From the NCBI GenBank assembly GCA_951406725.2, contig OX597839.1:38750001-38814000 (forward strand): a DNA stretch of 64,000 bases. The letters are read 5' to 3'. Positions 6,130 to 51,790 of the stretch are shown in pieces. This stretch comes from Octopus vulgaris. Taxonomy: Eukaryota. The number at the start of each line of letters is the position of its first letter. Positions within the stretch are counted from its first letter, which is position 1. The position numbers and the translations under genes are program-made. The notes under the pieces are model-generated. The model was given only the letters and a program-made list of their open reading frames with translations. It searched no databases and was not told the DNA's origin.

Positions 6130-6445
6130 TATTTATATTATTTACATTTGACGGATATTTGTCCTCATCTTGTTTGTTGTTCACACAACGTCTCGGCTGA
6201 TATACCCTCCAGCCTTCTTCAGGTGTGTTGGGGAAATTTCGAACATGTGTTATCATTCCTAAGATATTTTTCGATGTTATTATTATTATTATTATTACTC
6301 AGGTCACTGCCTGGAATCGAACTCGGAACCTTGTAGTTAGTAGCCCGCGCTCTTAACTACTATGCCATATGCCCGTGGCGTAGTGGTTAAGAGCGCGGGC
6401 TACTAACTCCAAGATTCCGAGTTCGATTCGAGGCAGTGATCTGAA
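6130..6445 (-). mobile_element. tRNA-headed element with (AAT)n linker and hammerhead-containing 3' part, plus an inverted copy of the head
   Basis: Head ggcatatggcRtagtRgttaagagcgcgggctactaac...gagttcgattccagg at 6299-6374 (-), mirrored at 6376-6444 (+). The HHR lies downstream at 6182-6227. Confidence 0.75.
6182..6227 (-). ncRNA. Minimal type I hammerhead motif (GAAA>GAGA in this copy)
   Basis: CACAC CTGAAGA A GGCTG-gagggtatat-CAGCC GAGA CG TT GTGTG. Confidence 0.65.
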
Positions 6446-8778: not shown

Positions 8779-8805
<27 letters not shown>

Positions 8806-8808
<3 letters not shown>

Positions 8809-9060
8809 AATTTTTCATTCGAAGTATACGTCTCGCTTTTATCCTTCGAAACGTTTAGTAGATGAAACTTTAGCGACTGAAGAAGGGGATTTTTCGTTGT
8901 GCTTATTGTCCTGTATCTCCTTTTTTTGCTTGTCTTGTTCCTTGGTTTGTGTCTATGTTTTTCGTCTCTCTATGTGTTCGACGTCCTTTTGGTGTCCTGT
9001 ACACATATATGCGTGTATATGTACATGTAGAGGTAGGTACGTACATATATGTTTATATAT
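8806..9060 (+). mobile_element. Family-H2 (TA)n-flanked non-autonomous element carrying a rearranged hammerhead
   Basis: Homologous to 37893-38125 (-) and 51600-51790 (-); shared 3' part ...gtcctRt.c.catat. Confidence 0.7.
8828..8890 (+). ncRNA. Candidate non-circularly permuted (pseudoknotted) hammerhead ribozyme
   Basis: ACG-TC-TCGCT ttt ATCCTTC-GAAA-CGT (17-nt linker) AGCGA-CTGAAGA-AGGGGAT; all three stems pair. Confidence 0.65.
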
Positions 9061-14700: not shown

Positions 14701-15299
14701 TCCTTTTATGATTATTCCAAGTGCTCCTACAATCACTGGTGTTGTAACCTCCTTGAGATGCCATGTTTTTTTTTTTCGATTTCAATGAGGAAATCTTTAT
14801 ATTTTATGAGTTTATCAACTTCTCTTGCCAAAATATTATGTTCACAAGGGATACTCATGTCGATCAATAAAGAGACTTCGTTATTTTAGTTTTCCACAGA
14901 AATATCCGGTTTATTTGCTTTGATGGTTCTGTTTGTATGTACAAGAAAGTCCCTGAGGAAAAATACTGAAGATGGCACTCCCTGTACCTTGGGGGATAGC
15001 AAAGTAATCAGGGACTTTTGCGTGGGGCTTACTACGAATTACCCTAAGTGGACTGCTCCGCTCTTGGGGATTCGATTAATTAATTATTTCTCTAATTTTC
15101 ATTTATATATCCTTTGTTATATCATTTAATATTGTAGTATCTCCCTTTGATCGATATAAACCCCACGTTTTGTGTGTTGTATTTCGTTCTTTGATATTGT
15201 CCTCCATATCTTGAGCCCTTGTAGCCAATAAAAGAAATTATTATTATTATTATTATTATTATGCTGTTTAGCATAATAATAAAAATAATAATAATAATT

Positions 15300-21020: not shown

Positions 21021-21195
21021 ACACTTGTAATAAAAGCAAGGCCAAAAGCGAGTATGATGAATGTGGAACACTCACATACACTTTTATATAATTGTGTGCC
21101 TGATGAACCAAATGGTGGCGAAACTATATGGCGTAACGATGTAGTTTAATGGGGGGATACGTTTTCTGTTCCTTTTACATCTTTTCTTCGAGATT

Positions 21196-37896: not shown

Positions 37897-38027
37897 TATG
37901 TAGGCATAGGACGTCACGAAACGTGTACAAAACAAAAATATACGAAGTACGAGTACATTGAACATGAACTATTCTTTTGAACAACGAAAGACACAAATGG
38001 AAAACAAAAGAAACAACATGAAGGACG

Positions 38028-38091
38028 ATCCTTCATCAGTTGTTGGGTGTTTTTCTAGTCTCGTATTTCGAGCATTTAACAACAATATACG
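38028..38091 (-). ncRNA. Candidate non-circularly permuted hammerhead, second H2 copy
   Basis: CGTA-TA-TTGTTG ttaa ATGCTC-GAAA-TACG (16-nt linker) CAACAA-CTGATGA-AGGAT; stems I and III covary relative to 8828-8890. Confidence 0.65.
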
Positions 38092-38191
38092 CTTTCGATA
38101 AAACAGTTGCTCCCGCAAAGCAAATTCACCATGCTGGACCGCTGTAATCTACAAGTTTTTTCCTTCTCTCTCTATTTATTTTCTCTTATTC

Positions 38192-38227
38192 CTTTCTGCT
38201 GAAGAGCGTAGGCTCGAATCGTAAGAG
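38192..38227 (+). ncRNA. H1 hammerhead-like motif, degenerate (GAAT), in element 38160-38318
   Basis: CTTT CTGCTGA A GAGC-gtag-GCTC GAAT CG TA AGAG. Confidence 0.4.
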
Positions 38228-51599: not shown

Positions 51600-51790
51600 T
51601 GCATATATGGGTACAGGACATCAAAAAAGCCTTGAACACAATGAGAAACGAAAACATAAAAACAAAAACATAGAAACGAACTTTTTTCGAACAACGAAAA
51701 AAAAAACAAACAAACAGAGAAACGAGATATACAACATAAAGAATATTCCCTTTCTTCAGTTGTCCCTGTTTCCTCTACTCCACGTTTCAC
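51600..51790 (-). mobile_element. Third H2 element, 5'-truncated within the rearranged hammerhead
   Basis: GAAA-CGTGG..agtagaggaaac..GACAA-CTGAAGA-AAGGGAAT; the upstream part is replaced by (TA)n. Confidence 0.7.

Follow-up and report, generated by a model that had tools for sequence, protein, structure and literature searches.

The minus strand at positions 38028 to 38091 of the Octopus vulgaris DNA analysed here (a stretch of 64,000 nucleotides, called the window below) carries the conserved letters of a hammerhead ribozyme in a permuted strand order, and the question raised by this locus is which strands would close such a fold and whether its RNA would cut itself. The best explanation, with a probability of about three in four, is that the locus lies in a 5'-truncated, non-coding Penelope-like repeat whose 3' part is predicted to form a likely self-cleaving hammerhead opened between A9 and G10.1.

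Hammerhead strands in the window

A preliminary description of the locus had drawn, all on the minus strand, CGUA (38091-38088), UA (38087-38086), UUGUUG (38085-38080), GAAA (38069-38066), UACG (38065-38062), a 16-nt spacer, CAACAA (38045-38040) and CUGAUGA (38039-38033), and each of these strands is present. Its 6-bp stem I (38085-38080 with 38045-38040) is made of Watson-Crick pairs only, and the 5-bp stem III (38091-38087 with 38066-38062) can likewise be formed. Both stems differ by compensatory changes from those of another copy near 8828, the two belonging to homologous subfamilies of one repeat with shared flanks; a hammerhead-like motif with non-circularly permuted strands, whose stems covary and whose core letters are kept, is thus upheld. 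The stem II implied by the same drawing (AUGCUC with AGGAU) has to be abandoned, as it makes 2 pairs at the junction in the window copy and shows no two-sided change in 29 copies. Three more helices, designated P4, P5 and P6, were missing from that drawing. The features are as follows.

37900..38126, minus strand: 5'-truncated copy of non-coding repeat subfamily A, with a TA-rich tail and (TA)n beyond
38113..38119, minus strand: 3' strand of the P6 hairpin; the P6 5' strand and the P5 5' strand are removed by truncation at 38126
38108..38112, minus strand: true stem II 5' strand GAGCA, with G10.1 at 38112 (5 Watson-Crick pairs with 38074-38070, and covariation)
38097..38105, minus strand: P4 5' strand, 6 + 2 pairs with one bulged A (sequence, folds and by-eye subfamily comparison)
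38092..38096, minus strand: internal loop between P4 and stem III, GAA side (subfamily comparison and alignment)
38088..38091, minus strand: stem III 5' strand CGUA (sequence and covariation)
38086..38087, minus strand: U16.1 and A17 (AUA triplet), with the predicted cut between 38086 and 38085 (sequence)
38080..38085, minus strand: stem I strand 3' of the predicted cut, UUGUUG (sequence and covariation)
38070..38074, minus strand: stem II 3' strand UGCUC, with C11.1 at 38070 (sequence and covariation)
38066..38069, minus strand: GAAA, G12-A15.1 (invariant in 29 aligned copies, themselves chosen with the motif)
38062..38065, minus strand: stem III 3' strand UACG (sequence and covariation)
38056..38059, minus strand: internal loop, ACUA side (subfamily comparison)
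38048..38055, minus strand: P4 3' strand (sequence and folds)
38040..38045, minus strand: stem I partner CAACAA (sequence and covariation)
38033..38039, minus strand: CUGAUGA, C3-A9 (sequence)
38027..38032, minus strand: P5 3' strand AGGAUC, not stem II; its partner is absent from the window copy
38012..38044, minus strand: predicted competing hairpin that would sequester CUGAUGA (folding)
8805..9000, plus strand: subfamily C copy with its predicted cut 3' of 8832; truncation leaves it starting one base past G10.1, which it therefore lacks
51600..51789, minus strand: subfamily B copy, truncated at GAAA, without cut-site block and stem II

All core letters of a hammerhead are present, namely CUGANGA, GAAA, U16.1-H17 and the G10.1-C11.1 pair (38112/38070); the order of the blocks is S-G-C, and the circular S-C-G nested junction of hammerhead types I-III in Rfam is not formed. 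No hammerhead appeared among the best 150 of 469 Rfam matches; these 150 came from microRNA models hitting TA repeats, apart from one to an unrelated UTR model. When 150 block-wise dinucleotide shuffles were used as background, a descriptor of stems I and III matched the window three times (8831, 38087 and 14928) against a shuffle mean of 0.013, and the descriptor extended by an upstream 5-bp stem II matched the window copy alone and none of the shuffles. The match at 14928-14972 (plus strand), which relies on G-U pairing alone for stems I and III and lacks both C11.1 and stem II, is probably due to chance. The internal loop reads ACUA in 21 of 30 subfamily A copies and AGUA in the other subfamilies; the GAA/AGUA loop (38092..38096 side) may be loop-E-like, and a kink-turn reading was considered and dropped because, by eye, the flanking C-G and U-A pairs seem to suit the GAA/AGUA loop better. 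The AUA triplet has been described, in the available text of PMC1636495, as present in natural hammerheads and slower.

Other hammerhead-like sites have also been seen in the window. A different repeat, with CUGAAGA followed by GAA(A) about 10 nt on, lies at 38199 (plus strand) and 889 (minus strand), the former copy head-to-head with the subfamily A element. By eye, a minimal type I Penelope-style hammerhead can be read at 6222 (minus strand), with 5-bp stems I and II, an extra A after CUGAAGA, and GAGA in place of GAAA. At 21100 and 21448 (plus strand), two copies of a repeat 348 bp apart have CUGAUGA and GAAA 13 nt apart, possibly a type I hammerhead in a tandem unit.

Stem II and the proposed opened core

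The strand before GAAA is perfectly complementary to one that lies about 25 nt upstream of the predicted cut (38112-38108 in the window copy), and the pairing reads GAGCA/UGCUC, GAAGG/CCUUC and GAACG/CGUUC in different subfamilies. In an alignment of 29 hand-picked, related copies, this upstream stem II is 97.2% paired with 3 of 5 pairs compensatory, and G10.1-C11.1 is G-C in 28 of the 29; stem I is 92.5% paired (4/6 pairs two-sided) and stem III 93.1% (3/4). The register drawn earlier for stem II is 79.3% paired in the same copies, with 0 of 4 pairs compensatory, no better than shuffles. Since AUGCUC pairs upstream and not with AGGAU, the chain would be opened between A9 and G10.1. P5 is made by the strand after CUGANGA together with CCCU, located about 75 nt upstream of the predicted cut (alignment columns 10-13, paired in at least 28 of 29 copies), and directly 3' of this CCCU lies the P6 hairpin, which ends at G10.1 and is 93.9% paired with 3/4 pairs compensatory. 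Covariation is thus shown by P5 and P6 as well as by stems I to III. P4 prolongs stem III past the GAA/AGUA loop and comes to lie next to where stems I and II have their far ends; it is only partly in register in the alignment, reaching 74% on 2 pairs. Taken together, the six helices have 90.7% of cells paired and 16 of 27 pairs two-sided, against 41-46% for slid controls, and because the copies are related these changes represent about eight subfamily branches as independent compensatory events, not 133 cells.

The strands therefore run from 5' to 3' as P5a, P6, stem II (G10.1), P4a, GAA, stem III, UH (cut) and stem I, followed by a linker of 2-5 nt, the stem II 3' strand, GAAA, stem III, AGUA, P4b, stem I, CUGANGA and P5b. 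In the proposed fold, helices I, II and P4-plus-III would form a cage around a standard hammerhead core, P5 and P6 would cap the gap between A9 and G10.1, and the RNA would cut itself 3' of H17. A local hairpin after CUGANGA had been considered as the conserved role of that strand; it was dropped on finding P5a and stays as a competing fold, nested folding giving a hairpin over CUGAUGA both in the window copy and in an intact one (L028). Folding predicts such a hairpin for subfamily A, and by eye it looks feasible in B, C and E as well; it might act as an off-switch or simply follow from the UG-rich tail.

A further check is offered by relatives of the copy at 51745 (subfamily B), for which an upstream CCACG.UH.UUGUC had been predicted. 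By eye, 29 of them (with pair counts for part) comprise 18 that are upstream-intact, 9 truncated, 1 with an internal deletion and 1 with an inverted junction. UH-UUGUC occurs in all 18 intact relatives and pairs with GGACAA; their stem III strand is mostly UCGCG, which pairs with CGYGG through Watson-Crick and G-U pairs, CACG being found in 1 of the 18 and CCACG in none. The predicted pairing is thus borne out in 18/18, and the predicted letters are not. Full-length relatives of this third copy lacking the complementary strand, which had been named beforehand as grounds for rejecting the motif, were not found among the 18 checked.

The window copy starts at 38126, within P6, with P5a and P6a absent; its three stems (I, II, III) as well as P4 are all whole, and neither of the other two copies in the window is therefore as complete. 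Its P5 3' strand reads AGGAUC, against AGGGUC in 22 of 30 subfamily A copies. Because P5a and P6a are missing and the competing hairpin is strengthened, this copy is probably slow or dead, and it seems rather unlikely that it cuts itself. An RNA of 38028-38091 alone would lack G10.1 and stem II, and its cleavage would probably fail. The window copy is, in this sense, a damaged member whose worth lies in representing one subfamily in the covariation set.

The repeat family

The sequence 38126-37900 is a dispersed repeat, with 6,087 first-look candidates in the O. vulgaris genome (2.8 Gb), the best 40 at about 90-93% identity. A pattern of GAAA, AGUA and CUGAWGA gave 6,260 exact matches versus 5 for the reversed control, so that at least 6,260 copies exist, and the matches fall in at least seven subfamilies. 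Those of the copies at 8828 and 51745 account for 1,717 and 3,193 candidates, respectively, and are both homologous to subfamily A, whose whole unit measures about 0.75-0.85 kb; the 8828 subfamily (C) is young, at about 100% identity, with head-to-tail units of ~835 bp. The 3 partial matches found in 400 kb of evenly picked DNA do not suffice to fix the copy number. The repeat occurs as partial tandems (head-to-tail) and as inverted 5' copies, its copies are often 5'-truncated, and its targets are (TA)n; this is the pattern of a non-autonomous Penelope-like element, whose insertion layout is described in the available text of PMC8557442.

No ORF attached to subfamilies A-G, and so none of the Naiad kind (N-terminal GIY-YIG, CxC, C-terminal RT), was found among the translations of the loci listed, and their link to Naiads therefore rests on shared architecture and targets. 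Two neighbouring gene families were rejected as partners. One, a 1,312-aa RT/GIY-YIG-like family beside two subfamily C copies, is equipped with a terminal repeat of its own, and subfamily A-C sequence is present in 0 of its 9 full-length loci; in the loci of the other, a GIY-YIG-like family beside a further copy (L013), a descriptor scan found no motif. Both look like co-insertions into (TA)n, and since Pfam recognised no RT and no GIY-YIG on the proteins of either family, these labels reflect motif reading only. The unit is covered piecewise by four contig sets whose RNA origin is a guess, and these cannot show ends, strand or splicing. In one subfamily C unit (L037:935-1730), GTAAG stands near the 5' end and a pyrimidine tract with CAG reaches the base before G10.1; a splice acceptor at that CAG would delete P5a and P6, though many copies have CGG instead and no spliced contig was seen in the four sets.

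The same layout in Naiad tails

Canonical hammerheads have been reported as absent from Naiads, eight of which were flagged HHR_half_core with the second half 35-50 nt off on either side, according to the available parts of Craig et al. (2021, PMC8557442). Supplement file 1 of that paper holds Naiad consensus records at 210 places, and for 48 of them (114-125 and 127-162) the last ~400 bases were read by eye. The core-opened layout is found in 10 of these tails (Bfor, Chem-3, Amil, Aacu, Anas, Movir-2, Plae, EuTe, Obim and Ovul), of which Amil, Aacu and Anas are near-identical to one another, as are Obim and Ovul; one more (Esco) fits it loosely. Type CSG was read in six nematode tails (Nbra-1 to -3, Hcon, Hpol and Asuum), and in 31 of the 48 neither layout was seen. 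The nematode CSG tails (Naiad-1/2/3_Nbra, Hcon, Hpol and Asuum) appear complete by eye, with long stems and the same extra helix. In the core-opened tails the layout is kept with unrelated helix sequences. In the octopus Naiad family the bases before G10.1 are UU, so that G8 and A9 must come from CUGAUGA. Among the records read, tails before Naiad-2_Movir, Bpla, Mphi, Scon and several bivalve records hold other conserved motifs. Some of these may resemble twister ribozymes, so that one class of ribozyme might be exchanged for another among Naiads.

Exact matches to the octopus Naiad tail number 378 in the O. vulgaris genome, versus 0 for its control. Of 30 loci that match the ORF end, 12 have this tail in the same orientation 0.8-1.4 kb further downstream. 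The ORF remnants upstream of the published tail belong to a family separate from subfamilies A-G; Pfam had no match on one of them (L401), and the window repeat's subfamily has no clear sequence match to the Naiad tail.

5' ends of genomic copies

The 5' ends of genomic copies were mapped from 3'-end anchors in 62 subfamily C arrays (skipping 8 downstream tandem members) and 69 subfamily A copies, with no rows dropped from the counts. Ends fall within the 17 nt after the predicted cut (0-16 nt) in 22 of 93 copies at risk (13/45 in A, 9/48 in C), and the pooled end rate of the other bins is 4.5% (A) and 3.7% (C). The binomial p-values (6e-8 and 6e-5) are rough, because the test bin was chosen knowing the cut site and several of the "ends" counted represent deletions inside the element or indels between subfamilies (in C the -125 and +98 groups, in A the copies L379, L356 and L317). 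Most of the pile-up lies at +5 to +14, not at 0, and 7 ends lie 2-12 nt before the predicted cut. This would fit a mixture of uncut templates and cut RNA, with reverse transcription of the latter halting a few bases before its end; 71 of the 93 copies run through the site, and uncut RNA is therefore the usual template. In the mechanism proposed, the cut would trim transcripts that are tandem or arise by read-through. Cut and uncut RNA alike would then be copied into (TA)n, in trans, by the reverse transcriptase of a Penelope-like element, probably a Naiad, which would explain why many copies start just past the cut. In another Penelope element, from Anolis, the hammerhead required protein, insertion in vitro proceeded without its cleavage, and none of the RNA reads terminated at the cut, as far as the available text of PMC11167929 goes.

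Alternative explanations

The same letters could be arranged in a plain type-SGC hammerhead, whose stem II would use the AGG strand that directly follows CUGANGA, an extra A being either present or absent. This would leave block C whole, and in the extra-A register the G-rich P5b does give 4 mostly G-U pairs with the 3' strand of stem II (77.9% paired, 1 of 5 pairs two-sided in the 29 copies); the arrangement is nevertheless very unlikely, given that the upstream strand tracks every 3'-strand change, that the register without the extra A is uncompensated, that P5b has an upstream partner of its own, and that in the Naiad tails the base after CUGANGA is unable to pair with the strand of C11.1. 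Chance complementarity in an AT-rich repeat, amplified by copying, would agree with the weak folding z-scores (-0.2 to -1.4), and covariation counts are inflated by related sequences; however, it is effectively already refuted by the shuffles (0/150 for the full descriptor), by covariation and by the prediction that held in the third subfamily, and the layout recurs in unrelated Naiad tails.

Two other readings keep the helices and differ in how they would work, and both appear improbable to a similar degree. The helices might form between two RNAs or tandem units as a strand-swapped dimer, as in minimal Penelope hammerheads, a proposal that arises because a monomer needs P4 plus stem III bent back sharply. 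Head-to-tail units about 835 bp apart would supply the strands, the crystal structure is difficult to reconcile with the link from the interaction helix to stem III (PMC10085705, available text), and dimer cleavage by Penelope hammerheads is named in the title of a reference; against this, all strands lie within about 140 nt, type-SGC RNAs of the same connectivity cleave in cis during transcription (PMC10085705), and the conserved internal loop could serve as a hinge. Alternatively, a conserved hammerhead-derived fold that no longer cuts, or cuts only with a protein, might be what the reverse transcriptase binds or where it stops, so that the 5' ends would mark stalls and not cuts. The ends centre 5-14 nt past the predicted cut and some precede it, most copies read through, and the Anolis hammerhead behaves in this protein-dependent and dispensable way; yet C3-A9, G12-A15.1, U16.1 and a non-G17 are kept across unrelated helices in several phyla, and a stall at +11 would not be expected, since a transcriptase moving 3' to 5' has unwound stems I and III and P4 before that point. 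An active hammerhead, whether monomer or dimer, is a quite probable reading of the family fold.

Comparison with known hammerheads and retroelements

The blocks S, G and C were defined by Eckert et al. (2023, PMC10085705), in whose available text no block, including CUGANGA with its adjacent strands, is assumed to be interruptible. There, types SGC and CSG cleave in vitro at 0.004-0.19 per minute; the SGC RNAs come from metatranscriptomes, the only permuted candidate from the genome of a known organism being a bacterial GCS. Type-SGC RNAs (HRIMA-1 and variants) resemble the octopus motif in the order S, G, CUGANGA, in the core letters, in the 2-5 nt link between stems I and II, and in an extra helix joining the far ends of I and II, which corresponds to P4; the S, G, C order, short linker and interaction helix of the type are all found here (P4 by eye and in folds), and the unbroken block C is not. 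In type SGC the stem II strand directly follows CUGANGA and the molecule ends at stem III, whereas the octopus motif is closed at III, opened between A9 and G10.1 and provided with P5 and P6, and it sits in an animal retroelement rather than in a metatranscriptome. Type CSG, known in that text from two metagenomic sequences, has the same circular strand order, with block C whole and the opening after stem III. An insertion between A9 and G10.1 is also tolerated in the CChMVd (+) hammerhead with its extra A10 (PMC1636495), in which one base is inserted, and not two helices and the chain ends as in the octopus motif. A literature search mostly without subscription journals found no tested hammerhead with a break between A9 and G10.1, and no paper that treats the core-opened form or reports permuted hammerheads from Penelope-like elements.

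Hammerheads of type I from Penelope-like elements and from non-LTR retrozymes (PMC4209133, PMC7229834 and bioRxiv 10.64898/2026.07.22.740005, in their available parts) share with the octopus repeat a site near the 3' end, tandem and inverted copies, and non-coding units below 1 kb. The type I (CGS) folds are nested and caught by standard descriptors, whereas the octopus motif is pseudoknotted and missed by them, and the type I hammerhead per tandem unit that marks a non-LTR retrozyme is lacking here. Naiads share with the window repeat (TA)n targets, tandem and inverted insertions and an identical layout in the Naiad_Obim and Naiad_Ovul tails (PMC8557442, records read). With somewhat less assurance than the reading of the repeat itself, an active core-opened ribozyme, together with the nematode type CSG, can be put forward as the missing ribozyme of many Naiads, from comb jellies to octopuses, the cut setting the 5' end of many copies. 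If these RNAs do cleave, the contiguity rule for CUGANGA and its stem II strand would be broken and the opening point would be added to the six block permutations; non-circularly permuted hammerheads would exist by thousands in animal genomes, beyond anonymous metatranscriptomes; and the "half core" entries of Naiads, once used to argue for a spread free of hammerheads, would be explained. The pile-up of 5' ends would provide a genomic read-out for what Penelope hammerheads do. Joining the two ends of SGC and opening the circle between A9 and G10.1 would give the octopus motif, which may thus be regarded as a third opening of the SGC/CSG circle, the three forms being one closed topology opened at three places; as drawn from its strands, the motif is akin to type SGC in its putative working and lies outside that type by one defining feature.
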